This document shows positions 10,967-55,412 of a DNA stretch of 64,000 bases, piece after piece. The notes beneath the pieces were generated by a model. It did no database searches. It was not told the DNA's origin and saw nothing but the letters and a program-made list of their open reading frames with translations. The position numbers were made by a program, and so were the translations under genes. The stretch comes from an uncultured Syntrophaceae bacterium (GTDB lineage: Bacteria; Desulfobacterota; SM23-61), in the NCBI GenBank assembly GCA_964484485.1, contig CAZAGD010000065.1:7490-71489 (forward strand). Reading direction: 5' to 3'. Position 1 is the stretch's first letter. Each line of letters opens with the position of its first letter.

Positions 10967-12867
10967 TATGAAACGGTGGTCTTTCTCTTTTTGAGGAACC
11001 AATATATTATAAAAAGCGCTACAGGGATTATAGCGGAAATGGCGTAGATAAGGTTAGGATGGAAAATAATTACTAAGGAAAAACCGGCGAGAATGAGGCG
11101 CATGAGTATGTCCACCATCTGTTTTTCACTATATTGGGCCTGCCACGCAAATACTATGCCTAAAGTTCCGGCCATCAATAGGCCCATAGCACCGAGTTGC
11201 GCTATACCAGGCTCGATAACTAATTGCGGCCGGGAAAAAACCCCTCCCATGAGCACGAAAATGACACTACATAATTGAATAGCCCGAAATAGAGTAGCAT
11301 TAAACCCGGCCTCCGCAATTTTAGACGTAACCGCCGCCGATACAGATGTGGGTGGAGTAAGTTCGCCCCATACAGCCACAAAAAAAGCAAAGAAATGAAT
11401 TACCCACGGATTTATGCCAATCTTTTGCATCGCCGGCGCAATAACTAAAACGGTAATTATATAAGTAGGCGCTGGCGGAAGACCAGTGCCTAAAAGAGAA
11501 CCTAAGATAAAAGCTATTAGAACCATAGCCACTATATTCATGCCCGCAGCTTCCATAAGGATGAAACCAATCTTTGTGGTCACCCCTGTATTCACTACTA
11601 CCCCGGTCATAATAGACAAGCTACTTAATAAAAGAGTTAAATCAAAAGTCATACTGGCAAAGTGATCGAGCATGCGCAAATAAGGTGCTCCAAATGAACG
11701 CAGAGAGCGTACGGGAGATTTTTGAAAAGCCATAAAATGAACTAAAGTAGCCGCGATAATAACGGCAATAAAGACCCGGAGAGCAGCAAGCATAGGAGGC
11801 AACTGGGTAATGCCCATCAGTAGAATCAACCCAGCAATAACTCCCCCATAAAGGATAAGATTAATTTTATCTATAAACTGCATTTCTGCCGGAATACGCA
11901 CCATCTTTTTTTGATAACGTACGGAAATTAAATATACAGCTACGCTAACCCCCAGATAATAAATTAATGCTGGAGCGTATCCTCTGGCGACGACTTCAAA
12001 GTAGCTCTTTCCTAAGAATTCGGCCATGAGGAAGGCGGCAATCCCCATGACGGGCGGCATTAATTGCCCGCCCATAGAAGAAGCGGTTTCAATGGCCGCC
12101 GCATTAACTTTAGGTATGCCACTAGCGATCATAGCTGGGATGGTGGCCGATCCGATGGTAATAGCGTTGGCTGCTCCACTACCACTTACCGTACCTACGG
12201 CCATAGATCCTAAAACTGCTGCTTGTGGTAACGCGTGGGCCGATTTATTAGCCAAACGAGAAGCTGTCTTCACGATAGATTCCACGCAACCAAAAGCGCG
12301 CATGACGCTTAAGACAAGTAAAAAAGATCCGATCAAGGTAAGAGCAAGTTGTGGGAGATTGGAAAAGACTCCGGTAGCCAGCTCTACGCTCATGGAGGTA
12401 AAAATCCTTTTCCAACTTAAGCCGGGATGGCCGAACATGCCCGGAATCAGCCAACCATAGACCGCATAAATGATCAAAATTAGATTAAGAACAAACAAAG
12501 CAAAGTGCCGCTTGCGCGTATATTCCAAAACTAAGATAAACATGAAGCCGCCGATGATTATGTCCGTGGTGTTCCACACTCCGGCCCGCACTGTACCTAT
12601 CGTTTCAAATTCCAAGCCGATATAAAAGAGGACGACGAAAGAAAGGCCCAAATAAATAAAGGCCATTATGTAATTGGCGGTAGGACTGAGCTTGGGGTAA
12701 AATTCATTCTTCCGTAAGCAATCAAGGGTAAAAAGAATAAAAGTAATGGGCAACAAAACCACCGCTAAGAGCGTTGGCCCCCCTTCGCCGGTTATATAAT
12801 AATGGAAAAGGTAACCGAAGAAGAATAAAGCAAACAGAGTATAAAGATTATTAATAAAAGACTTCAT
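10963..12867 (-). CDS. TRAP transporter fused 4TM/12TM permease (TAXI-type)
   Basis: 634-aa polytopic membrane protein with a DctM-like core and an N-terminal DctQ-like extension. Lies directly downstream of a TAXI-like solute receptor gene. Confidence 0.7.
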   Translation of the reverse strand: MKSFINNLYTLFALFFFGYLFHYYITGEGGPTLLAVVLLPITFILFTLDCLRKNEFYPKLSPTANYIMAFIYLGLSFVVLFYIGLEFETIGTVRAGVWNTTDIIIGGFMFILVLEYTRKRHFALFVLNLILIIYAVYGWLIPGMFGHPGLSWKRIFTSMSVELATGVFSNLPQLALTLIGSFLLVLSVMRAFGCVESIVKTASRLANKSAHALPQAAVLGSMAVGTVSGSGAANAITIGSATIPAMIASGIPKVNAAAIETASSMGGQLMPPVMGIAAFLMAEFLGKSYFEVVARGYAPALIYYLGVSVAVYLISVRYQKKMVRIPAEMQFIDKINLILYGGVIAGLILLMGITQLPPMLAALRVFIAVIIAATLVHFMAFQKSPVRSLRSFGAPYLRMLDHFASMTFDLTLLLSSLSIMTGVVVNTGVTTKIGFILMEAAGMNIVAMVLIAFILGSLLGTGLPPAPTYIITVLVIAPAMQKIGINPWVIHFFAFFVAVWGELTPPTSVSAAVTSKIAEAGFNATLFRAIQLCSVIFVLMGGVFSRPQLVIEPGIAQLGAMGLLMAGTLGIVFAWQAQYSEKQMVDILMRLILAGFSLVIIFHPNLIYAISAIIPVALFIIYWFLKKRKTTVSY

Positions 12868-12904
12868 TTTCTTGGTCCGTTATTTCTTATAAAAATAAAA
12901 CAAA

Positions 12905-12940
12905 AAAGTCCCGGGTAGCAAAAACCCGGGACTTAAGGAG
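12905..12940 (-). terminator. intercistronic hairpin + T-tract (attenuator/terminator) between TAXI receptor and permease genes
   Basis: Perfect 10-bp stem AGTCCCGGGT/ACCCGGGACT with a 7-nt loop. On the minus strand it is followed by TTTTTTGTTTT. Confidence 0.5.
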
Positions 12941-12947
12941 AGAATAA

Positions 12948-13976
12948 TTATTTAGCTTTGGCAATGCGCCCATCCCACTTGCTATCCCAAACATTTTTTT
13001 CGCGCATATATTTGGCCAAGCCTGGATGAATGGGCACAAAATCTACCGCTGCTTCGACACCTTGCCGTTGAAATCCGGGCATATCCTTCTGCAGCTGAAT
13101 AAAAGCACTATCTGCCTTAGCTAAATCAGTAGCATTTTTTTCAATAATGGTGAGCATCTTATAAACATCTTCTTCGGGGATTTCTAACCCCACATGGAAG
13201 CCATAATAAAAAGGCAATAAAAGCGCCTTATCTGCATGAATATTTTTCTTGAAGGCCTCTGGCTTGACTTCCATAATGGAAAATTTTGCTTTCTTCAAAA
13301 TCTCAATTTCTTCTGGACTGGGGTTCAATATCGCCCAATCTGTCCCTACAGATATTTCGATAATCCAAGGGGCGGTGGTAATTCCGGAATTGGTATAAGC
13401 GTTAAAAGCCTTTATTGTTCCTGCTTCTAATTGGGCCCCTACCGAAGAGAGATCCATTTCTCTATAGGTAAATTTTATACCTAAGGCTCGGAGAGCCCTT
13501 TCTAAATGAGCCCGCACATCCCAGGGTAAAGGTCCGGTAAAAATGGGCTGCCCGGTTAAATCACGCCATTGTTTGAATTTTCCTCTATCCTTGGCCATTA
13601 TGCCAACACCCACTTCTGTTGAAAATGCCCAGAAAGATTGTACTGGATACCTTTTAATTTGGGATTTGAAACCTTTAAAGCGGTTAATGTCGTTGGCTAA
13701 TTCGTAAAAAGCAATATCGGCGCCATAATAGCCGTCGAACTCACCAGTTGCATAACCTTTGACCGAAACAACTGCCCCCGGCGTGGGTAAGGCAGTTACT
13801 TTGTATTTGGGCAATTCTTTATTTATTAAAGCCGCCAAGTTAACCAAGGCTCTATGTCCTGAAGAACCGGCCGCCGAAGTAGCCCAACGAATATCCTTGG
13901 CCTGCCCCCAGCTTAAGGTAGTTATCGCTCCCCAAAAAACTGCGATAAATAAAAAAACAAGCCATCTTTTTTTCAT
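12948..13976 (-). CDS. TRAP transporter solute receptor, TAXI family (periplasmic)
   Basis: 342 aa with a signal peptide. SAAGSSGHRALVNLAALINKELP resembles the TAXI (TGGTGG...Y) N-terminal lobe. Paired with the fused TRAP permease. Confidence 0.6.
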   Translation of the reverse strand: MKKRWLVFLFIAVFWGAITTLSWGQAKDIRWATSAAGSSGHRALVNLAALINKELPKYKVTALPTPGAVVSVKGYATGEFDGYYGADIAFYELANDINRFKGFKSQIKRYPVQSFWAFSTEVGVGIMAKDRGKFKQWRDLTGQPIFTGPLPWDVRAHLERALRALGIKFTYREMDLSSVGAQLEAGTIKAFNAYTNSGITTAPWIIEISVGTDWAILNPSPEEIEILKKAKFSIMEVKPEAFKKNIHADKALLLPFYYGFHVGLEIPEEDVYKMLTIIEKNATDLAKADSAFIQLQKDMPGFQRQGVEAAVDFVPIHPGLAKYMREKNVWDSKWDGRIAKAK

Positions 13977-14093
13977 CTTTTACCTCCTTGGCTGAATTTT
14001 AATTTATTCTATATACTCTGCGCAAAAAGTGCAAACAAAAAATTTATTTCTTCTTAATGTCTTACTACACCTTTCTCTGCTGGCGAGAAGAAA

Positions 14094-14143
14094 AGGCTTG
14101 TCGCTTGCTAAGTATAATTCGTAAGGTAAGGGTCTAACTCCCC
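14094..14143. repeat. short repeat D (about 50 bp), copy 1
   Basis: GGCTTGTCGCTTGCTAAGTATAATTCGTAAGGTAAGGGTCTAACTCCCCC is about 80% identical to 15373-15425. Both copies lie immediately 5' of another MITE. Confidence 0.4.
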
Positions 14144-14161
14144 CAAATCCCTCTTAAGTTA

Positions 14162-14395
14162 TTAATCGGAGCAAATAAATATTTACAGTTATCACTCTTA
14201 TCTTACTCCGTGGTCTGGCTTTATCGAGTTTTCCCAATGAAATTTTGTCGTAATTACCCATAAGAAATAAAACGACATGCGGCAAGGGACAAGCACTTGC
14301 CCTACATTTGAGGTTTTTTTAATTTCTCGTAGGGCAAGCCCTTGAGGCTTGCCGAACCACGCATGAAGATGTCGTTTATTTTATGCTCCCATCAA
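14162..14395 (+). mobile_element. MITE family B, copy B1 (234 bp; IS630/Tc1-like TIRs with TA flanks)
   Basis: TIRs TTAATCGGAGCA (14162-14173) and TGCTCCCATCAA (14384-14395), flanked by TA on both sides. Three internal GC-rich hairpins (GGCAAGGG/CCCTTGCC, CTTGCCCTAC/GTAGGGCAAG, GGCAAGCC/GGCTTGCC). About 87% identical over the same 234-bp length to 48794-49027. Confidence 0.6.
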
Positions 14396-14449
14396 TAAAA
14401 GGCGGAAAGGGGGGTTATGAGATGAGGAAAGTTTATGCCGTGTAGGCAG

Positions 14450-15244
14450 TCATAAATATTGGGGCAATATCTTAACAGTATATTTATGCGCAATGCGGCG
14501 CCCCAATATGGGATCTTCCATCTCCAATTTGTAAGCATCTCCATATATTAAGCCACTCTTCGTGGCAATGGTTCCGGAAAAAAGGACGACGCCTTTCCCT
14601 TTTAAACTTTCTGCTTCGGGTATTTTCGCCATTATTTCTTGGGGTGAAAGAATTGTGCCCAAAGAGGCTTCTTGGTAAAGGATTTTTTCCTTATCTTTAA
14701 AAACCCAGCAGCGCAAAACGAGATTATCCCAATGATCTTCAATATCTGGCCAAGGCCAACATTCCTTGGCCAAACATTTGGCATACATTTGTTTGGAAGC
14801 CGGAATAGATTTCGCCTCTACCTCGCGGTCGGTATGGTCGCTACCTACGGTAACCCATATCTCTTCTCCTCGCCAAAGCAGAACATATTCAATTTCTCCA
14901 GATGACTGCGAGCTAATCACTGAAATTTCATCATCCGTAGTCAATAGATAAGTGGAAAAATTCATATAAATGGGAATTCGCGACGGACCAGCTATGCCTA
15001 ATTTGGCCAGCTCATCAATATGTTCCTGAAGCGCCTGCCGATCTTTTCCCACCCACCCACTGCAAATAAGATGATCAACGATAAAATTTAATTGTTTTGA
15101 GCCTTTTTTCTCAATAACAGTCATTGCCAGCACTTTAGGCGTTATCATTTTTGTTTCCTTTCTATTACTTATAATTGCTTTAACAATTTTATAAGATAGA
15201 AATAATATGTCAACTTTTTTGTGGTCAACTTGGTAATACCTCAC
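14450..15244 (-). CDS. conserved hypothetical protein (function unknown)
   Basis: 264-aa ORF with good coding statistics and no motif I can place. Likely start is the internal MITPKV Met. Lies between the two TRAP systems. Confidence 0.4.
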   Translation of the reverse strand: MRYYQVDHKKVDILFLSYKIVKAIISNRKETKMITPKVLAMTVIEKKGSKQLNFIVDHLICSGWVGKDRQALQEHIDELAKLGIAGPSRIPIYMNFSTYLLTTDDEISVISSQSSGEIEYVLLWRGEEIWVTVGSDHTDREVEAKSIPASKQMYAKCLAKECWPWPDIEDHWDNLVLRCWVFKDKEKILYQEASLGTILSPQEIMAKIPEAESLKGKGVVLFSGTIATKSGLIYGDAYKLEMEDPILGRRIAHKYTVKILPQYL

Positions 15245-15372
15245 GGAAGGATAGAAACTTTAATTTTTTGGGCCGGAAATTCGGAAATAATAACTTCTCT
15301 ATTAAATAACACCTTACCCAACGAAGTATTGTTGTAGGACAAAGGCTTATTCTGGTCAAGTTTAATCCGTAG

Positions 15373-15425
15373 CCTAAGGTCTTGTCGCTCGCTGGGTATA
15401 ATTCGTAATGTGAAGGTCTAACTCT
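15373..15425. repeat. short repeat D, copy 2
   Basis: GGTCTTGTCGCTCGCTGGGTATAATTCGTAATGTGAAGGTCTAACTCTCCC matches 14094-14143. Confidence 0.4.
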
Positions 15426-15429
15426 CCCT

Positions 15430-15482
15430 CTCTCCCTCCCGCCTGAATTAATCTGGAATTTAAAAACTGATCGACGGTCAGG
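15430..15482 (+). repeat. MITE family C, partial copy C3 (right half only)
   Basis: CTCTCCCTCCCGCCTGAATTAATCTGGAATTTAAAAACTGATCGACGGTCAGG matches the right arm and right TIR of C2 (53600-53662). The left arm is absent. Confidence 0.5.
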
Positions 15483-30135: not shown

Positions 30136-30159
30136 CTATCCTCCTTAGAATCTACCCTT

Positions 30160-30324
30160 TATCCCCCACTCTCCCCCGTGGTCGGGTGTCAGTAGGACAG
30201 TGTCGGAACGACAATCGTACCGATTCGTCCCGACTCTTATCTACTCTCCCCATGCTTGGGGAGAGGTTTTAGGTTGAGGGGTTAAAAATGGCCAAGGTCA
30301 TTTATTCAATGCTTCTATTAATCA
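30160..30324 (+). mobile_element. MITE family A, copy A1 (5'-truncated; fills the gspF-gspG intergenic space)
   Basis: About 90% identical to 37640-37797 and 44820-44991, including GTCGGAACG...CGTTCCGAC and TCTCCCCA...TGGGGAGA hairpins and the right TIR-like end ATGCTTCTATTAATCA. The left TIR is missing. The element ends at the gspF stop codon. Confidence 0.5.
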
Positions 30325-37601: not shown

Positions 37602-37795
37602 TTAGGCGGAGCAATTAAATATTTACGCTTAATCCCTTCAACCACCCCCCCTGTGTTCGGGTGTCAGTATGACAGTGTCGGAACGACAATCGTACCGATT
37701 CGTTCCGACTCTTATCGACTCTCCCCAGGCGTGGGGAGAAGGCCAGAATAAAGGGTTAAGAAGGGCACAGGTCATTTATTTAATGCTCCCATTAA
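37602..37795 (+). mobile_element. MITE family A, copy A2 (194 bp; TIR TTAGGCGGAGCA / TGCTCCCATTAA, TA flanks)
   Basis: Complete copy. The 12-bp TIRs are flanked by TA at 37600-37601 and 37796-37797. The internal hairpins are the same as in A1 and A3. Confidence 0.6.
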
Positions 37796-42087: not shown

Positions 42088-42983
42088 TTAGCCCCAAAGA
42101 GTCCCGTTGGTCTTATGGCCAAAACAGTAACCAAGACACCAAAGGAGAAAACTTCGTTATAAGCTGTACTGATATAACCCCCGCTTAGACTTTCCACTAA
42201 CCCTAAAATAAACCCACCTATGATGGCTCCGGGAATACTCCCCATTCCGCCTAAGATAATAATTACAAAAGCTTTAAGGATGACTGGCCCGCCCATTCCT
42301 GGGTAGACTAAATGGATAGGGGAAATTAAAGCGGCAGCTATGGAGGCCAAGCCGGTGCCCAAAGCAAAAACTATCATGCGCACGCGATTTACACTAATTC
42401 CCATGAGCAAGGCGCCTTCGCGATCTTGAGCCGTAGCTTCTATAGTGGCGCCGATGGTAGTTTTTTTAATAAAGAGCTGCAGAAGAATAATTAGCAGGAT
42501 AGTAACGGTGATAATGATTATTCTTTGTAAAGTAATTGTGAGGCCCATTACTTGGAAGGCCTCATAATGAACCGGGGGGAATCTTTTAAAGTCTGGGCCA
42601 AAAATATGTAAAGCCCCATCTACAAATATAAAGATTAGTCCAATGGCGGCTATAAAAGAATTTAAAGGAGATTCTTTGATCAAAGGCCGGTAAACTAAAC
42701 GTTCTACTAACACTCCGATGGCTGCTAAGGCGATCATGGCCAGCATCATGGCCAGCCAGTAATTGAATCCCATTTGGGTGGCCAACAGAAATGTCAAATA
42801 AGCTCCGGCCATATATAAAGCCCCATGAGCAAAATTAGGAATATGTAATATTCCATATTCCAAGGTAAGTCCCAAGGCCACCAATGAATAGATGCTGCCC
42901 AGCATTATGCCGTTTAAAACTTGCTGGATAAACAGCGCCATTTCTGCATCATCTTTTCCATTAAAATTTTTAGTGTAGAGCAA
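42084..42983 (-). CDS. livH: Liv-type ABC transporter permease LivH
   Basis: 299-aa polytopic permease. Confidence 0.8.
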   Translation of the reverse strand: MLYTKNFNGKDDAEMALFIQQVLNGIMLGSIYSLVALGLTLEYGILHIPNFAHGALYMAGAYLTFLLATQMGFNYWLAMMLAMIALAAIGVLVERLVYRPLIKESPLNSFIAAIGLIFIFVDGALHIFGPDFKRFPPVHYEAFQVMGLTITLQRIIIITVTILLIILLQLFIKKTTIGATIEATAQDREGALLMGISVNRVRMIVFALGTGLASIAAALISPIHLVYPGMGGPVILKAFVIIILGGMGSIPGAIIGGFILGLVESLSGGYISTAYNEVFSFGVLVTVLAIRPTGLFGAK

Positions 42984-43075
42984 GGGTTTATCCCTTGCCC
43001 TGGATGAGATAACTTTGAAGTTTATTCTCTTTATTTTTCAAGCAGAGATAAGAAAATTATAAAGATAAATAGATC

Positions 43076-44287
43076 TCACTTCGGCGTCCAAGTAGCGCCA
43101 TACTTTTGGTACCAGGGGCGCGGATCAATATCAACTGGTTTGCCAAATTTTCCCTCATCCACTTCCATGGCGAAGTAACCGGATAAAAATTGCCCTTCTT
43201 TAGTCATGGTATGAATGCCTCGGATAGCATGTTTGCCCACGGGTAGAACTTGCGGCACTGCCTCCATTATTTTATACACATCTGTTACAGTTCCCGCTTT
43301 CTTCATGGCCTCGGCAAAAATATACATAACTTCATAGTTGAAGGCTGATTCGGAAGTGGGAATAGTGTTAAATCTCTCTCTGTGTCTTTTGGAGTAATCT
43401 TGCATAAGCGGCAAAGGCATCATACCCACAGGACATACTCCCGTACTGGGGGAGATTAGTTTGAGTGGGGTTACTTTCTCCATCTCGTCCAGTTTACACT
43501 GGGATCCGAGAACAAAACCGCCCTTAAAGCCGAGTTCTCGCGCTTGCGATATAATCATGGCCGAAGGTTCTGAAGGGCCATAAAGGAAGATACAATCTGG
43601 CTTAGCGGCCAAAACTTTCGTTAGGTAAGGATAAAAGTCGGTCACTTTGGCATAATCAGCCGGGGCGTTAGCCACTATCTGCCCACCTTTGTCTTTCCAG
43701 AGAACCTCAAAAATTTGTTCGGCCAGTTTCCCTGATTCATGAGTACCACAAAGTAAGGCACCTTTGCGCCACCCCTTTTGCCAGCCCAGCTCGATTACTC
43801 CAGAATTATAAAAACCCATGGACATAGGTGCTTTGACCAATAACCTATTCCCCTGCTGCAATACAGCCGGATTATCAGTATAACCATGAATAATGAATTT
43901 TTCTTGTTCATTAAACTTCAGCATCCCTAATATGCCGCCGGCATGGGGACAAAAGATAAAAGGAGGTTTATGCAACTCGATTAAACGCCGGGCGTTGGTT
44001 ACTGTATCAGCCGGTTTATAGCGATCATCTAAGGCTATTACTTTAAAAGTATATTTTTTACCCCCAACGGTAATCCCACCGGCAGCATTTATCTCTTCCA
44101 CGGCCATTTCTAAACCCTCTAAGTTATTTCGACCGTATTTAGCTGCTCCTCCGCTCAAAGGTCCGGTATAGCCCACGTTAATTACATCGGCCAAAACCAT
44201 AGAAAGATTGCCCATAAACGACGTTAAGATAAGAATTATTAAAAAGTTTATAATTTTTTTAAAATTTTTCCCCCCACCCATAACCAT
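43076..44287 (-). CDS. Liv-type ABC transporter periplasmic substrate-binding protein (LivK/LivJ family)
   Basis: 403 aa with a signal peptide and a type I periplasmic binding fold. Confidence 0.75.
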   Translation of the reverse strand: MVMGGGKNFKKIINFLIILILTSFMGNLSMVLADVINVGYTGPLSGGAAKYGRNNLEGLEMAVEEINAAGGITVGGKKYTFKVIALDDRYKPADTVTNARRLIELHKPPFIFCPHAGGILGMLKFNEQEKFIIHGYTDNPAVLQQGNRLLVKAPMSMGFYNSGVIELGWQKGWRKGALLCGTHESGKLAEQIFEVLWKDKGGQIVANAPADYAKVTDFYPYLTKVLAAKPDCIFLYGPSEPSAMIISQARELGFKGGFVLGSQCKLDEMEKVTPLKLISPSTGVCPVGMMPLPLMQDYSKRHRERFNTIPTSESAFNYEVMYIFAEAMKKAGTVTDVYKIMEAVPQVLPVGKHAIRGIHTMTKEGQFLSGYFAMEVDEGKFGKPVDIDPRPWYQKYGATWTPK

Positions 44288-44589
44288 CCCCCTTTCTTAT
44301 TTAATTTTTTTATTTAAAAGGTAAAGTTATATAACTAATTTATTAGCGGACCCCCCTGACCTCTTTATCTCTACTTAGCCAGAAGATAAAACCCAACATT
44401 CAATTATATTCTCGGAGCAAATTACCATTTTTGCCAAACAATTTCAAGCAAAACTTAATTGGCAAAGTAATATCTCACTGAAGGTTAGAAACTTTAACTT
44501 TTTTGGCTACAAATGAGGCATGTAGCCATTATTACATGGGTTTTAAATAAGGCATTTGGTAGCGGAGTATGGCGTAGGCCAAGGGTTCA

Positions 44590-44781
44590 TCCCTTGCCGA
44601 AAAGAGGCAAGCCCTAAGGGCTTGCCCTACGAGAAATTAAAAAAACCTCAAATGTAGGGCAAGGGCTTGTCCCTTGCCGCATTTGGTTTTATTTCTTATA
44701 TGTAATTACGACACAATTTCATTGGGGAAAGTAGATAAAGCCAGACCACGGAGTAAGATAAGAGTGATAGCTGTAAATATT
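44590..44781 (-). mobile_element. MITE family B, copy B3 (reverse orientation, truncated at both ends)
   Basis: The reverse complement matches the B1/B2 core (AAATGCGGCAAGGGACAAGCCCTTGCCCTACATTTGAGGTTTTTTTAATTTCTCGTAGGGCAAGCCCTTAGGGCTTGCC) and the upstream CCGTGGTCTGGCTTTAT...ATGAAATTGTGTCGTAATTAC segment. Its left end abuts the A3 TIR and its right TIR is missing. Confidence 0.5.
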
Positions 44782-44783
44782 TA

Positions 44784-44991
44784 TTACTCGGAGCAATTAA
44801 TTATTTACACTTATGCCCCTCACCCTCCCCCCGTGGTCGGGTGTCAGTATGACAGTGTCGGAACGACAATCGTACCGATTCGTTCCGACTCTTATCGACT
44901 CTCCCCATGCTTGGGGAGAGGGTTAGGGTGAGGGGTTGAAAACGGCGGATGTCATATATTTATTGATCTCATTAATAATTGCTCCCAGTAA
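44784..44991 (+). mobile_element. MITE family A, copy A3 (208 bp; TIR TTACTCGGAGCA / TGCTCCCAGTAA, TA flanks)
   Basis: Near-perfect 12-bp TIRs with TA at 44782-44783 and 44992-44993. Same internal hairpins as A1 and A2. Confidence 0.6.
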
Positions 44992-47133: not shown

Positions 47134-48101
47134 AATTCCTTCTTTTTCCTGATCAAATTCCGCGCTTCTTGAGCACTACATTTTTTCTTACCCATGATCA
47201 AGGCTATTTTAGGTTCGTAATCAGCTTTTTGCAACAAATCTTGGGCTTGTTTTGCTGGGCAACCGAGAATTTGGGTTACAATTTTTTCGGCTCTTCTCTT
47301 CAATTTTTGGGAAACAGGCCTAACTTCTATCATTAAATTACGGTAAACTTTTCCCAGAAGAATCATGGCCCCCGTGGAGATCATATTCAATACCAGCTTG
47401 GTTGCTGTTCCAGCTTTTAGGCGAGTTGAACCAGCAATTATTTCGGGGCCAACTATCGGATTAATTAATATCCCCTTTTTAAAAGGAAGCGCGGGGTGAG
47501 GCTGACAGGTAATAAAAATGCAACGCGCCCCCCGCTTATATGCTTCTCCTAAAGCGGCGCGCACAAAAGGGGTTGTGCCCGAAGCACTTATGCCGCAAAC
47601 TACATCTTTTCTTCCAATTTTCGCTTTTCTTACCGCGTGCACTCCCGCTCCTTGATCATCTTCGGCACCTTCTATGGCTTTCCAAAGGGCTTTTCGCCCT
47701 CCCGCAATAATGGCCTGTACTTTTCTTGATGACACATTAAATGTGGGTCCACACTCCACCGCATCCAACATGCCTAAGCGGCCACTTGTTCCAGCACCCA
47801 CATAAAATAATCTTCCTCCTTGTTTAAGAGCATCATGAACTATCTCTATAGCCCGGGCCACCTTACCAAGTTGAGTATGTACGGCTAAAGCAACTTTTTG
47901 GTCCTCACGATTCATAACCTCGGCTATTTCTAAAGCAGATGCCTGGTCAATATTGATCGATGCCAGATTGCCTTTTTCTGTTAATGCCGAAAATTCTCTT
48001 TTCTTATTTTTGGCCTTTGGTTCCATCTTCCCCATGGCCATATTCTTGGCCTTTTGCCCCCGGCCCTTCGCTTTTTGCTCCACTCCCCGCGCGCTGCTCA
48101 T
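47076..48101 (-). CDS. murQ: N-acetylmuramic acid 6-phosphate etherase
   Basis: SIS domain with YVGAGTSGRLG and an EGAED... catalytic Glu region. The true start is probably an internal Met, giving about 300 aa. Confidence 0.85.
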   Translation of the reverse strand: MSSARGVEQKAKGRGQKAKNMAMGKMEPKAKNKKREFSALTEKGNLASINIDQASALEIAEVMNREDQKVALAVHTQLGKVARAIEIVHDALKQGGRLFYVGAGTSGRLGMLDAVECGPTFNVSSRKVQAIIAGGRKALWKAIEGAEDDQGAGVHAVRKAKIGRKDVVCGISASGTTPFVRAALGEAYKRGARCIFITCQPHPALPFKKGILINPIVGPEIIAGSTRLKAGTATKLVLNMISTGAMILLGKVYRNLMIEVRPVSQKLKRRAEKIVTQILGCPAKQAQDLLQKADYEPKIALIMGKKKCSAQEARNLIRKKKELWKELLGQEYGASRKRKRE

Positions 48102-48670
48102 TCCCCTACCAACTCTTTACCCAACGCATAAGCTTCCGTCAAAGCAGTTGGATGCTTGATAATTTCTCCTTTTTCATCAATTTTCTGGTAAAGAAGTGAT
48201 TTATAAAAAATCATATCTAGGGCATCAAAAAAATATTTCATGGTTAAGAGTGGTCCATCGAAGACCTTATTCCCTCGCGATCCTCCCACAGCCAGAAAGA
48301 CTCCTCGGCGGTGCGGTTTATTTGGTGATATGGGTTGTTTTAATAGATATTTCTTCGCCCAAAGGGCCTGGCAACGGTCAATAAATGCCTTAGTATGGGC
48401 ACTTACCGCATAGAAGAAAATGGGGGAAGCAAGGGCGACTGCATCGGCTTCGGCCAGCTTATCATAAAGAGGCTGCATATCATCGGGAATGGGACATTTT
48501 CCTTCTTTTTTACACGCATAAATTTCTAAACATGGACTAATCTTTAATTGGCGTAAAAAAATTTCTTCTACTTCCGCTCCAGCCTCCCGGCAGCCCCGGA
48601 GAAGTTCTCTCAATAAAAGATCCGTATTTCCATCTCGGCGCGGACTCCCGTAAATACCCAAGACTTTCAT
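48098..48670 (-). CDS. NADPH-dependent FMN reductase / iron-sulfur flavoprotein-like
   Basis: MKVLGIYGSPRRDGNTDLLL flavodoxin-like N-terminus. 190 aa. Confidence 0.75.
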   Translation of the reverse strand: MKVLGIYGSPRRDGNTDLLLRELLRGCREAGAEVEEIFLRQLKISPCLEIYACKKEGKCPIPDDMQPLYDKLAEADAVALASPIFFYAVSAHTKAFIDRCQALWAKKYLLKQPISPNKPHRRGVFLAVGGSRGNKVFDGPLLTMKYFFDALDMIFYKSLLYQKIDEKGEIIKHPTALTEAYALGKELVGE

Positions 48671-48793
48671 TTTTGGCCCTCCTTTTTTAAAACCTTAGCA
48701 AACTACTTCTCTCCTGCCAAGAGGGAAAAATTTTGACCGCCAAGCGATTTTAATTTTTTAGTCCCTCGGCATAAAGAGGCTCTGGGGCAATTA

Positions 48794-49027
48794 TTAATCG
48801 GAGCAATTAAATATTTACAGTTATCACGCTTATCTTCCTCCATGCTCTGGCTTTGTTTGCTTGCCCCAATGAAATTGTATCTTAATTGCCCATAAGAAAT
48901 GAAACCAAATGCGGCAAGGGACAAGCCCTTCCCCTACATTTGAGGTTTTTTTAATTTCTTGTAGGGCAAGCCCTTGGGGCTTGCCGAACCCCGCATTAAG
49001 ATGTCGTTTATTTTATGCTCCCATTAA
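48794..49027 (+). mobile_element. MITE family B, copy B2 (234 bp; TIR TTAATCGGAGCA / TGCTCCCATTAA, TA flanks)
   Basis: Same length and architecture as B1, with TA at 48792-48793 and 49028-49029. Explains the spurious ORFs 48703-48924 and 49008-49334. Confidence 0.6.
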
Positions 49028-49208
49028 TAACTCTCCTCTGCCCAGCTGGGCACTTGGTCTTAATCAATAAATAGGCTAACTTTCTCCTGGGGTGGAGACT
49101 GTGTCGCCATGAGGGAGGAGGGCCGGAGGCAGGCCAAAAAGGAAACCAGTTGTTTTTTTGTGAAGAAAGAGCTATCCTATGCAAAATTTTTAAGAAAGGA
49201 GGAGTCCC

Positions 49209-49811
49209 ATGAAAGCCCAAGAAACCGCCATCGTTTTTATTGAGTTTCAAAATGACTTCTGCAAAGAAGGAGGTGCCCTTTACGAAGGAGTAAAAGGACA
49301 AATTAAAGCCCAAAACACTATTAAAAATGCCCAAGATTGCCTCCAGCGTGCCCGCGGAAAATGCCTTACTTTACTTGTGCCCATTCTTTTCGAAGAAGAT
49401 TATACTGATATAGGTTGCCTGGAAGTTTTAGGCCCTATTCATATCAACGCGGCTAAGGCTAAAGCTTTCCGCAAAGGTACTTGGGGTGGAGAGATTATTG
49501 AGGAATTGAAGCCCACTAAGCAAGATATAGTGGTTGAAGGTAAGAGAACCTTGGATGCTTTTCACTCCAGCAATATTGATTTCATCCTGCGGGTCAACTG
49601 CATAAAAAATGTAGCTTTCTGCGGATTCCTCACTAATGTATGTGTGGAAGGAACAGCCCGGTCAGCTTACGATAAGGGGTATAAAGTTTTTCTCCTAAAA
49701 GACTGCTGTGCGGCTATTTCCGCCGAAGAACAAAAATATGTGGAAGAAAAATTCTTCCCCTATATTGGCGAAGTATTAACACATGATGAATTCTTAAAAA
49801 GGCTAGAATAA
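49209..49811 (+). CDS. isochorismatase-family cysteine hydrolase
   Basis: Isochorismatase fold. Asp (IEFQNDF), Lys and Cys (FCGFLTNVCVEGT) catalytic triad context. Confidence 0.75.
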   Translation: MKAQETAIVFIEFQNDFCKEGGALYEGVKGQIKAQNTIKNAQDCLQRARGKCLTLLVPILFEEDYTDIGCLEVLGPIHINAAKAKAFRKGTWGGEIIEELKPTKQDIVVEGKRTLDAFHSSNIDFILRVNCIKNVAFCGFLTNVCVEGTARSAYDKGYKVFLLKDCCAAISAEEQKYVEEKFFPYIGEVLTHDEFLKRLE

Positions 49812-49896
49812 AAAAATTCTCGGGGCAATAAGGCTTTTTATGGGCTGCTTGATTTAAGCAGTTCATAAATTCTTTTTTTATATAAAGGGAATCGAA

Positions 49897-51336
49897 ATGA
49901 AAAGGGAAAAAAGTTTTCACATGGATCCCGATGAATTTCGCCGGTGGGGATATGCCGTAATAGACTGGATTGCTGATTACTATAAACGCGTCGAGTCGCT
50001 ACCGGTCTTATCTCAAGTTCAACCGGGTGAGATTCGCGCTAAACTCCCTCCTCATCCCCCGCGACAAGGCGAACCATTTTCCCAAATTCTGGCGGATCTG
50101 GAGCAGATCATTCTACCCGGGATTACCCATTGGCAGTCCCCTAAATTTTTTGCCTATTTCCCAGCTAATTCCTCTGGGCCTTCTGTATTAGGGGAACTCT
50201 TGGCTGCAGGCTTGGGAGTACAAGGAATGCTCTGGTCAACGAGTCCGGCTTGCACAGAGTTGGAAACACATGTATTAGATTGGTTAGTTGATCTTTTGGA
50301 TTTGCCCCAAAAATTTAAATCCTCCAAAAGTGGGGGTGGAGTAATCCAAGATTCAGCTTCCAGCGCGGCTCTTTGCGCTATCTTAGCGGCGCGCGAGCGG
50401 GCCACCAATTATTTGACTAATGAACGAGGATACACCGGAAAGCTGATCGCCTATGCTTCTACCCAAACCCATTCTTCCATTGAGAAAGGGGTGAAGATCG
50501 CGGGGATAGGTAGGGAAAATTTACGTTTAATAGATGTGGATAAAAATTTTGCTATGCGCCCCGATTTGTTAGCCGGGCAGATTAAAAAAGATCGAGAAGC
50601 AGGTTTGCTTCCTTTCTTTGTTTGTGCTACGGTAGGGACTACTTCCTCTAATGCCCTTGACCCCCTGGCGGAAATTGGGCCCATATGTCAGCAAGAAGGG
50701 CTTTGGTTGCATGTGGATGGCGCCATGGCTGGGACGGCAGCCCTTTGCCCAGAATTTCGCTACATCCATGCCGGCTTGGAATTCGCGGATAGCTATTGTT
50801 TTAACCCGCATAAATGGATGTTTACTAATTTTGATTGTGATTGTTTCTTCGTTGTCGATCGCCAAATTTTGATCAAGGCTTTCAGTATTCTTCCGGAATA
50901 TTTGCGTAACCGAGCGTCCGAAAGTGGAACAGTATTTGATTATCGAGACTGGCAAATTCCTTTAGGAAGGCGTTTTCGCGCCCTGAAACTATGGTTTGTT
51001 ATCCGTCACTACGGCGTGGAAGGATTACAATATCATATTCGTCGGCACGTGGCCTTAGCCCAGGAGTTCGCCCAATGGGTCAGAGAAGATGAGCGTTTTG
51101 AGTTAGTGGTCCCTCCGCCTTTGAATTTAGTGTGCTTCCGGCATAAAGGGGGAGATATCCTAAACGAAAGGATTCTGAATCAAATAAACAAAAGTGGGGA
51201 TTTATTTTTGACCCATACAAAGTTAAACGAGAAAATTACTTTACGCCTGTGTGTAGGGCAAACCTACACCGAAGCTCGTCATGTGCGGGCGGCCTGGGAA
51301 AAGATTTCCCAAGTGGCTAATGATTTAGAAAAATAA
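49897..51336 (+). CDS. PLP-dependent group II decarboxylase (aromatic-L-amino-acid/tyrosine decarboxylase family)
   Basis: PLP-lysine motif NPHKWMFTNFDCD. Conserved HWQSP and DSASSAAL regions. 479 aa. Confidence 0.8.
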   Translation: MKREKSFHMDPDEFRRWGYAVIDWIADYYKRVESLPVLSQVQPGEIRAKLPPHPPRQGEPFSQILADLEQIILPGITHWQSPKFFAYFPANSSGPSVLGELLAAGLGVQGMLWSTSPACTELETHVLDWLVDLLDLPQKFKSSKSGGGVIQDSASSAALCAILAARERATNYLTNERGYTGKLIAYASTQTHSSIEKGVKIAGIGRENLRLIDVDKNFAMRPDLLAGQIKKDREAGLLPFFVCATVGTTSSNALDPLAEIGPICQQEGLWLHVDGAMAGTAALCPEFRYIHAGLEFADSYCFNPHKWMFTNFDCDCFFVVDRQILIKAFSILPEYLRNRASESGTVFDYRDWQIPLGRRFRALKLWFVIRHYGVEGLQYHIRRHVALAQEFAQWVREDERFELVVPPPLNLVCFRHKGGDILNERILNQINKSGDLFLTHTKLNEKITLRLCVGQTYTEARHVRAAWEKISQVANDLEK

Positions 51337-51348
51337 TAGATTCCCTAA

Positions 51349-51840
51349 CTAATCAAAATTAAAATCGACGGCAATTTTAATAATTTTGCTGGCGGGCAAA
51401 TTTAAGATTTTTTTAACCCCTGTTCGCCGCGATATCTCTTTTATAATTTTTTCAATTTTTTGCGCCGTTGGCGCAATCAAGGTAAACCAAATATTATAAT
51501 CTCCTGCCCGTTCATAATTATGGGTTACGCCGGGATAGGAATTAACTACTTCAATAAATTTCGGCAATTTCGCCATCGGTACTTTGGCCGCGCAAAGAGT
51601 GGAAGTAAAGCCCATAGCGCGGGCACTAAAACTGGCTCCCATCCGGCGAATAATGCCGGCAGCATGCATCCTCTGCACACGAGCAAAAATTTCCTTTTCT
51701 TTCAACTTTAATTTGCGAGCTAAAGCTAAATAAGGGCGGTGGGTTATGGGAAAATTTCTCTGGATTTCCTTAAGGATGAGCCGATCTTTTTGATCCAGAG
51801 TTAACCCTGGATCCACCGCAGATTCTTTCTTTCTTTCCAT
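51349..51840 (-). CDS. Lrp/AsnC-fold protein resembling siroheme decarboxylase subunits (AhbA/AhbB, NirD/L/G/H family)
   Basis: Start moved to the MERKK Met (51840), 14 bp after the upstream radical-SAM stop. The ORF-track start would overlap that gene by about 100 bp. HTH, then GVTHNYERAGDYNIWFTL, which I recall as typical of the NirDLGH/AhbAB lineage rather than classical Lrp. Confidence 0.5.
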   Translation of the reverse strand: MERKKESAVDPGLTLDQKDRLILKEIQRNFPITHRPYLALARKLKLKEKEIFARVQRMHAAGIIRRMGASFSARAMGFTSTLCAAKVPMAKLPKFIEVVNSYPGVTHNYERAGDYNIWFTLIAPTAQKIEKIIKEISRRTGVKKILNLPASKIIKIAVDFNFD

Positions 51841-51854
51841 CTTTGTCTTTTCTT

Positions 51855-53093
51855 TTAGCTTACGCAAATCAGTCCTTGATCGCGCCATTTGATAATCTCC
51901 CATGCCAAAACTTCCTGTTCTTTCCACCAACCATCTAATTTCTTTTTCTTTTCCCAATCTATTAAAGTATTTTTAGTCTGGTCATCTATGAGAGAAGGCT
52001 CTTTTAAAAAAAGGGGCGTACCGGGCAAAGGAAGAAAAGAATGAGCGTGAATCTTTGCCCCATACTCTTCAATCATGCGGGCAGCCAAATTTAAAGAAAG
52101 GAGACGATCAGTGCTACTCTCCTCCGGAAATCCAAAAATAAAATCAACATGAGGTGAAAAGCCTGCTTGACAAATTAACCTGACAGCTTCTAAAGCTCTT
52201 TCCGCAGTGTGTCCCCGATGCAGTTTTTGTAGTAAAGCATTACTTCCGGATTGCCCTCCTAAAACAATAGTGCGGTTATGACAAAATTTTTTAATGAGCT
52301 CCAGAACCTCCTTGGAGACCCAGTCTGGCCTTACTTCGGCGGGGAAAGAGCCGAAGTTAATCTTAGTATACCCAGCCTCTTGGCAAGCAGTAAACAGTTC
52401 TTTTAGGGCTGTTAAATTCGGTTGATGATCTTCTTTGGCTCCATAAGCCAAAGCGTTGGGCGATATGAAGGAGCAGCGTTGGTAACCATAGGTGGCTGCC
52501 TTTTGCAATTGTTGACTAAGGTTATCTAAATTTCTATGGCGCAGTGAATTTCCAAATATTCGAGGGGTCTGACAAAATGTGCAGCCATACGGGCAGCCGC
52601 GCGTAATTTCCAAGGGAGCAAAAAAATTTTCTTCGCTATAGAAAGGAGGGAAAGAAGGAACACACCATCCTTTTTTCTTGGGACGAACGATCCTTTCTGT
52701 TGGCAAACGTCCGGCAAAAAATTGCTCCACAAAATCCGGCCAGGTCTCCTCTGCTTCCCCCCAAAAAACGAAATCGAACCCTAATTTTAAAGTCCCTTGG
52801 GGATCAGCAGTAGCATGCGGACCGCCAGCAATAATGGTGATCTCATCCCGAAAATTTTTCCGCAAATCTTCTATCTCTTCCTCGACTTTCATTAACCAAG
52901 GAGTCATAAAAGAATATCCAATCAAGGTTATCTTAGGTAGTATTTTTTCTTTTATATCTTTCAGAGATTCTGCGGTCGTAATTTTTATTTTTCTGGTCCA
53001 GCCTCTTTCCTCCAGTCCCCCCATGAGGGTTGGTAGAGTATATCTATTCTCTCTTGTCCTCCGCAAGATCAAGGTTGGTTTTTCTACTTTCAT
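51855..53093 (-). CDS. B12-binding-domain radical SAM protein
   Basis: N-terminal Rossmann-like cobalamin-binding region. CPYGCTFC is a Cx3Cx2C radical SAM cluster. 412 aa. Confidence 0.7.
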   Translation of the reverse strand: MKVEKPTLILRRTRENRYTLPTLMGGLEERGWTRKIKITTAESLKDIKEKILPKITLIGYSFMTPWLMKVEEEIEDLRKNFRDEITIIAGGPHATADPQGTLKLGFDFVFWGEAEETWPDFVEQFFAGRLPTERIVRPKKKGWCVPSFPPFYSEENFFAPLEITRGCPYGCTFCQTPRIFGNSLRHRNLDNLSQQLQKAATYGYQRCSFISPNALAYGAKEDHQPNLTALKELFTACQEAGYTKINFGSFPAEVRPDWVSKEVLELIKKFCHNRTIVLGGQSGSNALLQKLHRGHTAERALEAVRLICQAGFSPHVDFIFGFPEESSTDRLLSLNLAARMIEEYGAKIHAHSFLPLPGTPLFLKEPSLIDDQTKNTLIDWEKKKKLDGWWKEQEVLAWEIIKWRDQGLICVS

Positions 53094-53332
53094 GACCTAT
53101 ATTTTATCTTTTGGACCTGCCCTCTTGTCAAAGTAAAATTAAATGAGTTCCTTCATCTCCCGTTGGAAGTGATTTTGAACTAAGAGCATAAAGCTACCTT
53201 ATGATCCCGAGAGTGGACCTCCTTGCCTCTTGGGCGACTAAGATTTAGATAAATAGTTAAGTTGGTCCAGGTTAAAAGAAATCTCTGAAAAATCTTTTTA
53301 AAAAATTTGTAGGTCAACTCTTTATAAACCGC

Positions 53333-53425
53333 TTGAGGTAAGGGACAAGCCCTTACCCTACAAATTTATTGGCCAGATGTTTTTTGTAGGGTAATCCCTT
53401 GTGGCCTACCGAATGAATATTAATG
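53333..53425. repeat. degenerate fragment of MITE family B (B4)
   Basis: GGTAAGGGACAAGCCCTTACCCTACAAA...TTTGTAGGGTAATCCCTTGTGGCCTACCGAATGAATATTAATGGGGAACA retains the hairpin architecture and a TIR-like end, at about 65% identity. Confidence 0.35.
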
Positions 53426-53545
53426 GGGAACAATTCCTTATCCTTAGCTCATGTGTCCGTATCTTCCAAGATGGCTCTTTACCTCACTCTCCCGTGCCAG
53501 AGTGTAGTTTATAATCACATTTTTCAAAGGTCTCTTAAAATTACT

Positions 53546-53662
53546 AACCGTCTAACAGTTTTAATATTTCTCGCCAGCAGGAAACAGGCGGGAGGGGGAG
53601 AGGCGAGCCTCTCTTCCTCCCGCCTGAATTAAGCTGAAATTTAAAAAATGATCGACGGTCAG
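53546..53662 (+). mobile_element. MITE family C, copy C2 (117 bp) with 11-bp target-site duplication
   Basis: TIRs aACCGTCtaaCAg ... tgaTCGACGGTcag. Internal hairpin CAGGCGGGAGGGGGAGAGGCGAG/CCTCTCTTCCTCCCGCCTG. Perfect direct repeat TTAAAATTACT at 53535-53545 and 53663-53673. Confidence 0.6.
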
Positions 53663-53674
53663 TTAAAATTACTC

Positions 53675-53703
53675 TTGACAGCTTTGCTAGTAAGATATAA
53701 TCT
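53675..53703 (+). promoter_or_regulatory. sigma70-like promoter for pal/ompA-like gene (TTGACA-17-TAATCT)
   Basis: -35 TTGACA at 53675-53680, within or adjacent to the right TSD of MITE C2. -10 TAATCT at 53698-53703. GGAAGAGG lies upstream of the start at 53749. Confidence 0.45.
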
Positions 53704-53748
53704 CAATTTATTGCATAAATCTTTTGGGTCAGGAAGAGGTCTGGAAGA

Positions 53749-54399
53749 ATGAAAAGAGGGATGATAATTTTTTTAGCAGTCATTTTTTGGGCATCTGTTT
53801 TAAATTTTGGTTGCAGCCAAAAAGTGATGCGCTCCGAAGAAACACCTTACCCCATCTCTCACCAGGAACCCCCAAAAGATACCAGACTTGCGCCGAAAGC
53901 AGTTACGCCCAGCCCACCACCTTCTTTTACCGCACCTGATATAGAAAAACAACGGAAAGATAAACCTTTAAAGGAGGAGACACTGGGAGCTCAGCCTTCC
54001 GCACCTCCACTCCTTAAAGAAGAATTAAAAAAAGAGAAAGAAACCCGCGAGGCAGCTCTAACCAGCATAGAATTAAAATCAATCTTTTTTGATTTTGACC
54101 AGGCCGTCATCAGGGAAGATCAAAAAGAAGTCATGTTGCAAAATGCACAATGGCTCAAAGCTCATCCCCAGGTGCGAGTAAGAATTGAAGGAAACTGTGA
54201 CGAAAGAGGAACAGCAGAATATAACTTAGCCTTAGGGCAGAGAAGAGCAGAAGCGGTAAAGGAATTTTTAGAAGGGCTGGGAATTGCTCCTACACGCATG
54301 CAAACAATTAGCTATGGCTTTGAACGTCCTTTAGACCCCGGTCATAATGAAGAAGCTTGGGCCAAAAATCGGCGAGTTGACTTTACTATTCTTAAATAA
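53749..54399 (+). CDS. pal: OmpA-family peptidoglycan-associated lipoprotein (Pal-like)
   Basis: Lipobox VLNFGC and a Pro-rich linker. C-terminal OmpA domain (NCDERGTAEYNLALGQRRAEAV...NRRV). Confidence 0.8.
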   Translation: MKRGMIIFLAVIFWASVLNFGCSQKVMRSEETPYPISHQEPPKDTRLAPKAVTPSPPPSFTAPDIEKQRKDKPLKEETLGAQPSAPPLLKEELKKEKETREAALTSIELKSIFFDFDQAVIREDQKEVMLQNAQWLKAHPQVRVRIEGNCDERGTAEYNLALGQRRAEAVKEFLEGLGIAPTRMQTISYGFERPLDPGHNEEAWAKNRRVDFTILK

Positions 54400-54470
54400 A
54401 GAGGTTGAAGAAAAGTCTTAAATTGTGGAGGCAAATTTTTTAATCATAAACCAGAAAGGAGGAAAATTTT

Positions 54471-54758
54471 ATGCCCATGACAAAAGCCCAGATTGTAAGT
54501 TATTTAGCAGAGAAAACTGGAGTAGCCAAAAAGCAAGCCGCGGCAATTCTTGATGAGCTTGCTGGCCTGGCGGCCAAAGTGATCAAAAAAGGTGATAAAC
54601 TTGCTCTTCCTGGATTTGTAACTGTAAAAGTGCAAAACCGCAAAGCGCGGATGGGTAGAAATCCGCAGACCGGGGAACCAATAAAGATTCCGGCGAAAAA
54701 AGTGGTGAAAGCCGTCCCCGCTGCTGCCTTAAAGTCAATATTAGCTCCCAAAAAATAA
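54471..54758 (+). CDS. hup: HU/IHF-family nucleoid-associated DNA-binding protein
   Basis: 95 aa. GFVTVKVQNRKARMGRNPQTGEPIKIPAKKVVK is the HU beta-arm signature. Confidence 0.85.
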   Translation: MPMTKAQIVSYLAEKTGVAKKQAAAILDELAGLAAKVIKKGDKLALPGFVTVKVQNRKARMGRNPQTGEPIKIPAKKVVKAVPAAALKSILAPKK

Positions 54759-54794
54759 AATTTATTTTTCCGCTATTTTTATAACAGACTTGGG

Positions 54795-54850
54795 CCAGAA
54801 GAGGCGAATTTTATATGCCCTTCTGGCTCAAGATTTTTTTAAACTTCTGG
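54795..54850. terminator. bidirectional rho-independent terminator between convergent hup and maoC-like genes
   Basis: Stem GGCCAGAAGAGGC / GCCCTTCTGGC, followed by AAGATTTTTTTAAA. An A-rich run on the other side serves the minus-strand gene. Confidence 0.5.
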
Positions 54851-54865
54851 AGGAGAAAATTTGCT

Positions 54866-55315
54866 TTAACTCCTCTTGATCATAAGCGTCTTGTACCCCG
54901 ATTGGACTACTACCTCTCCTTCTTTTTTTATGATTTGTAAAAAGAGCTTAATTATCCCCCTATCTGGTTTGCTCTTACTGGGAATCTTTTCTACTACTTT
55001 AGCTTTTACATAAATAGTCTCACCAAAAAATAAGGGGGCCTCAAATTTCCACGAATCGATACCTAAAAAAGCAATTGCGGTGCCCTCCAGATATCCGGTG
55101 CGGAACAGTAAACCATGGGAAATAGCCAACCCTAACAATCCATGGACAATCCTTTGTCCAAATTGACTATTTTTCATAAAAGCTTCACTGGTATGTAGTT
55201 CATTATAATCTCCGCTCATAGCTGCAAACATGACTACATCCGTCTCCGTAACAGTTCTACTGGGAGTAATAAATTCTTCATTTAGCTGCCATTCATCAAA
55301 TAATTTTCCAGTCAT
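54866..55315 (-). CDS. MaoC-like (R)-specific enoyl-CoA hydratase / hot-dog fold dehydratase
   Basis: 149 aa. NELHTSEAF...RIVHGLLGLAISHG is the MaoC/PhaJ hot-dog motif. Confidence 0.75.
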   Translation of the reverse strand: MTGKLFDEWQLNEEFITPSRTVTETDVVMFAAMSGDYNELHTSEAFMKNSQFGQRIVHGLLGLAISHGLLFRTGYLEGTAIAFLGIDSWKFEAPLFFGETIYVKAKVVEKIPSKSKPDRGIIKLFLQIIKKEGEVVVQSGYKTLMIKRS

Positions 55316-55412
55316 AACTTAATCTCCTTAATATTTTGCTTTATATTATCACCATCAAGATTTTAAGCGTTTGGCCTCCCTAAAGCAATTTTTTAAAAAA
55401 ATTAACCTAAAC

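Follow-up and report, generated by a model that had tools for sequence, protein, structure and literature searches.

Family B, a Probable IS630/Tc1-Mariner-Type MITE with a REP-Like Hairpin Core in an Uncultured Sulfate-Reducer-Like Lineage

The 234-bp repeat family B, represented by the copies B1 and B2 in the 64-kb window (the whole 64,000-nucleotide stretch of DNA that was analysed), is very probably a non-autonomous MITE of the IS630/Tc1-mariner type whose transposase is supplied in trans by an IS630-family IS. A preliminary description of this DNA had already classed the repeat as a non-autonomous MITE of the IS630/Tc1 type, and that assignment is supported here by the number of copies, by the TA duplication and by the recovery of an IS630-type partner with matching ends. 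The superfamily that shares these ends consists of IS630-derived MITEs in an uncultured sulfate-reducer-like lineage and is a newly defined example of a known element type.

Copies of Family B and Other Repeats in the Window

B1 occupies positions 14162-14395 (forward strand), in the loop of another palindromic repeat, and B2 occupies positions 48794-49027 (forward strand), between divergent FMN reductase-like and isochorismatase-like genes. The two copies had been described as 234 bp long and about 87% identical; the lengths were confirmed, and 208 of the 234 positions were identical (88.9%). The TA reported on each side of both copies was found at 14160-61 and 14396-97 for B1 and at 48792-93 and 49028-29 for B2. 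With these flanks, B1 reads TA-TTAATCGGAGCA...TGCTCCCATCAA-TA (14160-14397) and B2 reads TA-TTAATCGGAGCA...TGCTCCCATTAA-TA (48792-49029). The ends of the family are TTAATCGGAGCA on the left and TGCTCCCAT(T/C)AA on the right. They form the 12-bp inverted termini noted previously, with 11 of 12 positions identical between TTAATCGGAGCA and the reverse-complemented right end (TTAATGGGAGCA) and an imperfect likeness that extends to ~25 nt. Four occurrences of the 20-nt terminal motif were counted in the window, as compared to 0.09 expected from shuffles, which is far beyond chance.

Family B has no coding capacity, the ORFs that overlap it being only short and non-conserved, and at 234 bp it falls within the size range of bacterial MITEs (under ~500 bp). 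Examination of the MITE copies in the window against the ORFs showed that all of them are intergenic, as had been claimed. The B2 insertion is present in the ENA contig L004 as well, at 98.75% identity, while contigs L001 and L003 both stop ~95 nt into B1. Ends of this kind are typical of repeat-induced breaks in (short-read) assembly.

A third copy, B3, had been described as inverted and truncated at 44590-44781. The inversion stands: the main part of B3 (44560-44781, reverse strand; the low boundary is approximate) is B-like over 44606-44781, where it is 93% identical to B1, and the arms 14174-14353 and 44606-44785 are 93% complementary, as in an inverted B copy. Simple truncation does not stand, since a nested MITE of a second family, A, interrupts the B3 terminal repeat; this nested element is 192 bp long (44784-44975, forward strand) and has TA at 44782-83 and 44976-77. 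The outer 14 nt of the interrupted repeat, ATTGCTCCCAGTAA, have been displaced to the far side of the nested element at 44978-44991 (reverse strand), where their own flanking TA follows (44992-93). Deletion in silico of the nested A element and one TA produces CTGTAAATATTTAATTGCTCC, a sequence that, once reverse-complemented, matches exactly both the left terminus of B2 and the intact B copy in locus L082. The other arm of B3 (~44560-44605) follows a stand-alone hairpin-cluster repeat and not the B right arm.

Family A elements are ~194 bp long and have termini as in B (TTAnnCGGAGCAATTAAATATTTAC ... GTCATTTATTTAATGCTCCCATTAA), with an interior that is unrelated to B. In addition to the nested copy, a family-A MITE of 194 bp lies at 37602-37795 (forward strand; TA at 37600-01 and 37796-97), and a family-A remnant without its left terminus lies at 30150-30321 (forward strand) in the type II secretion operon, in the interval from the T2SSF stop codon (30325-27) to the T2SSG ribosome-binding site. 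The 64-kb window contains six TIR-family elements, or ~1 per 10 kb, and at this density they make up a visible share of the local intergenic DNA.

The absence of a transposase gene from the window, stated in the preliminary description, was confirmed in three ways. No transposase was found by Pfam analysis, which covered the ORFs with 110 aa or more in the intervals 138-1710, 14450-48101 and 58605-63972, none was present among the called genes of L001 and L004 (equivalent to window positions 2948-14256 and 47866-58670), and tblastn of the window with the transposase of locus L075, described below, returned nothing. The window has a G+C content of 43% and a housekeeping content that includes TAXI/TRAP transporters, GatCAB, a type II secretion operon, a Liv-type ABC transporter, AnmK and MurQ-like proteins, ETF, acyl-CoA dehydrogenase and multihaem cytochromes. 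Four 40-nt repeats at 1979-2798, with a spacing of ~261 nt, lie inside the gene for a 595-aa S1-domain protein (1737-3524, reverse strand); these were rejected as a mobile element and correspond to tandem S1 domains.

Repeats of other kinds were also observed. One family, at 14092-14161 plus 14396-14425 and at 15376-15428, has a box GCTTGTCGCTTGCTAAGTATAAT followed by a C-rich/G-rich palindrome, CTAACTCCCCC...CCCTCTTAAG-N-TAAGAGGG...GGGGGAG, and occurs as well at L047 8237-8330 and at L046 1913-2002 and 2280-2372. It is the loop of this palindrome that holds B1, and the palindrome is also found as the interior of 304-314-nt C-type MITEs. A palindromic repeat of ~115 nt, ACCGTCTAACAGTTTTAATATTTCT...CAGGCGGGAGGGG...CCTCCCGCCTGAATTAAGCTG...GATCGACGGT, is present in at least three copies with inverted ends (4459-4597, 15426-15481 and 53547-53662) and may be another MITE family; a paralog in L100 holds an inserted B copy. 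Additionally, a 48-nt direct repeat beginning GTAATA(C/T)CTCAC(G/T)GAAGG(A/T)TAGAAACTTTAA... occurs at 15233-15280 and 44467-44514 with 83% identity. One of its copies overlaps the 5' end of a DUF2848 ORF (14450-15244, reverse strand) and the other lies upstream of a Peripla_BP_6 binding-protein gene (43076-44287, reverse strand).

Copies in Other Genomes, the Target Site and a Candidate Partner IS

A scan of the genome collection with the left-terminus pattern CGGAGCAANTAANTATTTAC identified 16 loci, which are distributed over four MAGs with the label Thermodesulfobacteriota or Deltaproteobacteria. Seven further genome matches (Hormoscilla, Maribacter, Geosporobacter and others) were discarded as chance 20-mer matches with no surrounding element. 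In the metagenome collection, an exact 20-mer search identified 75 loci, mostly from Ga0209102 and Ga0129301, both of which also have contigs that encode a protein identical to a window protein. Pairing of left and right ends across the related MAGs and metagenomes resulted in 88 elements at 74 unique sites, with lengths of 122-314 nt and a mode of 240 nt; ~43 of the 74 are family B copies of 238-242 bp, which establishes that the repeat is multi-copy. Alignment of the 43 unique B copies gave a mean column identity of 93% and a mean pairwise identity of 0.907. The elements form modular subfamilies with common ends, namely A (122-200 nt, in short and long forms), B (240 nt with flanks), an A/B chimera (289 nt) and C (304-314 nt). 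BLASTN of B1 against PLSDB plasmids gave no match. Left termini without a nearby right end in L011 and L012 were examined for a neighbouring transposase; only housekeeping genes were found there, and these termini were set aside as variant or truncated MITEs.

Across the 74 sites, conservation reaches 99-100% at TA and at the element positions, and the TA flanks noted for B1 and B2 are therefore near-universal among the other copies. The first base outside TA is T at 67 of 74 left flanks and A at 68 of 73 right flanks; two bases further out, A is found at 58 of 74 left flanks and T or A at 65 of 73 right flanks. The target context is the palindrome A-N-T-TA-A-N-T, and filled sites read A-N-T-[TA]...[TA]-A-N-T. 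Predicted empty sites were rebuilt as flank+TA+flank and searched for in the window and the retrieved loci. The uninterrupted sites recovered were mostly paralogous repeat copies and cross-lineage orthologous regions, which match the rebuilt sites and have the T-TA-A context.

Filled and empty sites were matched for L026/L010, L078/L039, L053/L035 and L067/L035, and the pairs involving the window were L100 with 53520-53680, L016 with 44481-44183, the A element in B3 with L082, and B1 with L047/L046. For example, GTTAGAAATTTAAACATT in L026 matches GTTAGCAATTTAAAAATT in L010 across the junction, AAACTTAAATAATAG is the same in L053 and L035, and CAGTTTTAATATTTCT in L100 pairs with the window at 53520-53680. 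The B1 site, CTTAAGT[TA]...[TA]AAAGG, has the uninterrupted paralogs CTTAAGGTAAGAGG (L047 8237-8330) and CTTAATTTAAGAGG (L046 1913-2002 and 2280-2372). Because a single TA, and no more, joins the two flanks at the empty sites, the duplication is the 2-bp TA, and a duplication of TA only is seen at several uninterrupted sites. Presence/absence polymorphism between strains was not found, all of the empty sites being either paralogous or from another species (at most 91% flank identity), and for this reason it is solely the similarity of the copies that points to recent mobility.

Six-frame translations of all retrieved loci were scanned with a transposase motif, resulting in one match, LPSYSPELNPDE in L075. 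The match lies in an autonomous IS of 1116 bp (L075 3287 to 2172, reverse strand) that has TA on both sides and an intact 343-aa ORF; there was no transposase besides this one in the ~0.95 Mb of loci retrieved by MITE terminus. The ORF matched the IS630 family transposase model NF033545 with 234 bits (cutoff 100) and Pfam DDE_3 with 121 bits (4.6e-35), and it carries several N-terminal HTH domains. The ends of the IS are TTAATCGGAGCA.../...TGCTCCCCGTAA, with terminal repeats of ~30 nt (TTAATCGGAGCAAAAAATAGTTTGCATTTT and TTACGGGGAGCATAAAATAGTTTGCATTTT). An A-type MITE of ~125 bp (L075 ~3426 to 3296, reverse strand) is located 8 bp from the IS, and the two, which together span L075 2169-3426, split an ABC-transporter permease gene on this 95-kb metagenome contig (Ga0315298_1000319). 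The preliminary description had called for a genome search for an IS630-family transposase ORF bounded by the same TIRs, and L075 holds one, flanked by TA and beside a MITE of the superfamily.

Comparison of the left ends of B and of the L075 IS showed that the outer 13 nt are identical and that the two diverge after position 13, while the right ends have in common the 14-nt block GGGAGCATAAAATA. Of the outermost 20 nt at each MITE end, 17 are identical to the IS. No IS with the MITE-type inner repeat ATTAAATATTTAC was found. Relatives of the L075 transposase are many in metagenomes (70-99% identity), mostly on contigs of ~1.1-1.5 kb, and the IS relatives that were fetched (77-86% protein identity) have the ends TTA(C/A)TC(G/A)GAGCATAAAATAG(A/T)TTGCA and TA flanks in many contexts. 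One transposase among these relatives, P0036, was found as an identical protein in places that include Ga0078972 and Ga0272448, which are metagenomes that also contain the MITEs. The nearest annotated plasmid relatives in PLSDB are "IS630 family transposase" genes at 45-56% identity, and the L075 IS belongs to a distinct clade within the IS630 family. Loci L103-L110 carry the identical 343-aa P0036 with identical ends in very different neighbourhoods and come from several sequencing sources; in L104 the copy is next to reductive-dehalogenase-like genes. This distribution of P0036 suggests a recent horizontal spread of the IS clade across hosts.

The L075-type IS clade or a close relative is a plausible mover of both A and B and is regarded here as their candidate partner, and we infer that a mobilising IS is present, or was formerly present, in the window's own genome. 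In the transposition of IS630/Tc1-mariner elements, the terminal repeats are bound by a DDE transposase, which excises the element and inserts it at a TA; gap repair then duplicates this TA. In family B, the imperfect terminal repeats of ~25 nt, which start with TTAATCGGAGCA, would be where a DDE transposase acting in trans binds and cuts. The transposase would cut the element out and paste it into TA, preferably within A-N-T-TA-A-N-T, and the TA would be duplicated on repair.

The Central Hairpin Module and Rival Explanations

The centre of B1 is a hairpin module (14281-14353) of two inverted 25-nt units that resembles a GTAG-tagged REP dimer. Unit 1 reads GGCAAGGG-N5-CxCTTGCC-CTAC (14281-14305) and unit 2 reads GTAG-GGCAAGCC-N5-GGCTTGCC (14329-14353). 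The consensus unit is GGCAAGGG-N5-CCCTTGCC-CTAC, together with the inverse that starts with GTAG, and has an 8-bp stem and a 5-nt loop. Three GC-rich perfect stems had been claimed for each copy. The stems are present, but only the family consensus is perfect, as B1 and B2 each have a single mismatch in stem 1 and B2 has another in stem 3; furthermore, the stems overlap, and because their arms are shared they cannot all form together.

The hairpin module also occurs on its own. A repeat at 53333-53425, previously taken for a decayed B fragment, is instead a stand-alone hairpin module (53326-53413, forward strand) that lacks IS630-type termini such as those of B and matches stand-alone copies elsewhere. 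The window at 53324-53413 is 72-82% identical to the B core, and 53326-53413 contains stems with the compensatory changes GGTAAGGG...CCCTTACC and a 25-nt unit at 53337-53361. A single 25-nt hairpin-CTAC unit is located at 42975-42999 (reverse strand) in the Liv-type ABC operon, between the binding-protein gene and the first permease gene, and stand-alone units of the form GGYAAGGG-N5-CCCTTRCC-CTAC are found at 44574-44598 (reverse strand) as well. In the retrieved loci the unit has ~50 occurrences outside TIR-bounded elements, as singles, dimers and triplets; stand-alone copies include L066 10379-10491, L054 9954-10065 and L059 245-358 and others in L040 and L074. Variants of the stem are compensatory (GGTAAGGG...CCCTTACC, GGCAAAGG...CCTTTGCC and GGCAATGG...CCATTGCC), and the CTAC is nearly invariant.

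The published anatomy of REPs comprises a palindrome of 20-40 nt and a GTAG tag, and REP dimers within longer palindromes have been described in Anabaena variabilis (PMC3733652). The central module of B is likewise a palindrome of 20-40 nt with an unpaired GTAG, and it is found extragenically as singles and inverted dimers that are independent of other repeats. At the level of sequence, the B core can be said to resemble the GTAG-tagged REPs, which falls short of membership among them. REPINs normally spread by means of a RAYT tyrosine transposase. A tentative reading, which we think possible but rather doubtful, is that B is a chimeric hitch-hiker, in which a REPIN-type dimer embedded in an IS630-type MITE was amplified to dozens or hundreds of copies by the DDE transposase. 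If this were true, two unrelated transposition systems would meet on one small element, and REP hairpins would be seeded genome-wide without RAYT. B3, whose right arm continues as a stand-alone REP cluster, could then be viewed as a record of recombination between both repeat systems.

That a RAYT acting on the central GTAG-tagged hairpin dimer spreads the whole of B, with the IS630-like ends as relics, is very unlikely. B is conserved from end to end, its termini are 99-100% conserved at the outer positions and it is always bracketed by TA, all of which fits cut-and-paste by a DDE transposase; HUH/Y1 transposition (IS200/IS605, RAYT) is not known to give a target duplication. The core is indeed an inverted dimer of 25-nt CTAC/GTAG hairpin units, and the ~50 stand-alone units with their compensatory stem variants are what RAYT spread would lead one to expect, but these ends are also found on families A and C, which have no such hairpin core. 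GTAG-tagged REPs and their dimers in longer palindromes are known from other bacteria (PMC3733652), while tblastn over the 1.0 Mb of retrieved loci found no RAYT/IS200 (Y1) homologs, which is a weak negative result.

Mobilisation of family B by a different transposase family merits even less credence. The candidates would be the IS5 group, with 3-4-bp TNA or YTAR duplications, or a TTAA-duplicating family, the ends then being TCGGAGCA...TGCTCCCA. All copies read TTATTAAT...ATTAATAA, which does allow TTA/TAA or TTAA to be mistaken for the duplication, but the empty sites AAATATTTAATTGCTCC, GTTAGCAATTTAAAAATT and CTTAATTTAAGAGG restore one TA and not TTATTAATAA, which excludes both TTAA and TNA. 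The left end is TTACTCGG in many A-type and some B-type copies, where there is no TTAA to be duplicated, and the sole full-length element bounded by such ends codes for an IS630-family protein.

Least probable of all, and in effect refuted, is a reading of the copies as pieces of a conserved structured RNA gene, the alternative named in the preliminary description, or of a cis-regulatory RNA leader, and not as insertions: although the B1 single strand folds better than shuffles (-33.2 kcal/mol, z = -3.76) and the centre of B contains GC-rich stems, Rfam had no match at gathering thresholds over the whole window, RNAalifold on the 43-copy alignment gave a covariation term of +0.33 with compensatory change in 2 of 35 pairs, the 43 B copies are too similar to one another for covariation to emerge, with pairs disrupted by changes about as frequently as they are preserved, and the elements are found in unrelated contexts and both orientations, with TA duplications, matching empty sites and one nested copy.

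Likeness to Known Systems and Significance

The reading of family B as an IS630/Tc1-mariner-type MITE has a precedent for its parent-IS/MITE argument in RUP and IS630-Spn1 of Streptococcus pneumoniae (PMC2229807). RUP is, like B, small and non-coding, with IS630-family-like terminal repeats, TA insertion, a mostly intergenic location and a high copy number (PMC2229807). RUP also often inserts into other repeats or IS (PMC2229807), and here B1, the nested A element and several copies at other loci do likewise. The two have no sequence similarity and differ in length (107 bp for RUP and 234 bp for B), and B differs further in its uncultured Thermodesulfobacteriota-like host, in having several subfamilies with one pair of ends, and in the REP-like dimer inside it. 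The L075 IS is in turn like other members of the IS630 family (NF033545; DDE_3) in its single ORF with HTH and DDE_3, its terminal repeats and its TA flanks. The B core shares with GTAG-tagged REPs and REPINs the hairpins with unpaired GTAG/CTAC at one end and the occurrence as extragenic singles, inverted dimers and triplets; unlike them, the B dimer rides in an element with IS630-type ends and TA duplications, and no RAYT was found in the retrieved loci.

Correia elements of Neisseria and other bacterial TA-flanked MITEs resemble B in that they are small, have AT-rich ends, inverted repeats and TA flanks, and are mostly intergenic or co-transcribed (PMC2229807). In contrast to Correia elements, B has a candidate parent IS and shows no promoter or terminator signal in B1 or B2. 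Consensus scans found no promoter- or terminator-like sites inside either copy, and the counts around both were no higher than in shuffles; the suggestion that the elements shape promoters and terminators genome-wide received no support from these scans. Correia elements carry functional promoter and RNase III features and are not known to have a parent IS.

For these uncultured Thermodesulfobacteriota-like bacteria, the results provide a defined repeat library that comprises the ends, the TA target, the A, B and C subfamilies and the IS put forward as candidate parent. The library explains the breaks of short-read contigs at B sites (L001 and L003) and helps to separate true intergenic regulatory sequence from insertions. 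Beyond the lineage, the finding amounts to a textbook IS630/MITE pair, in which just one feature is less common, the REP-like dimer carried as cargo.
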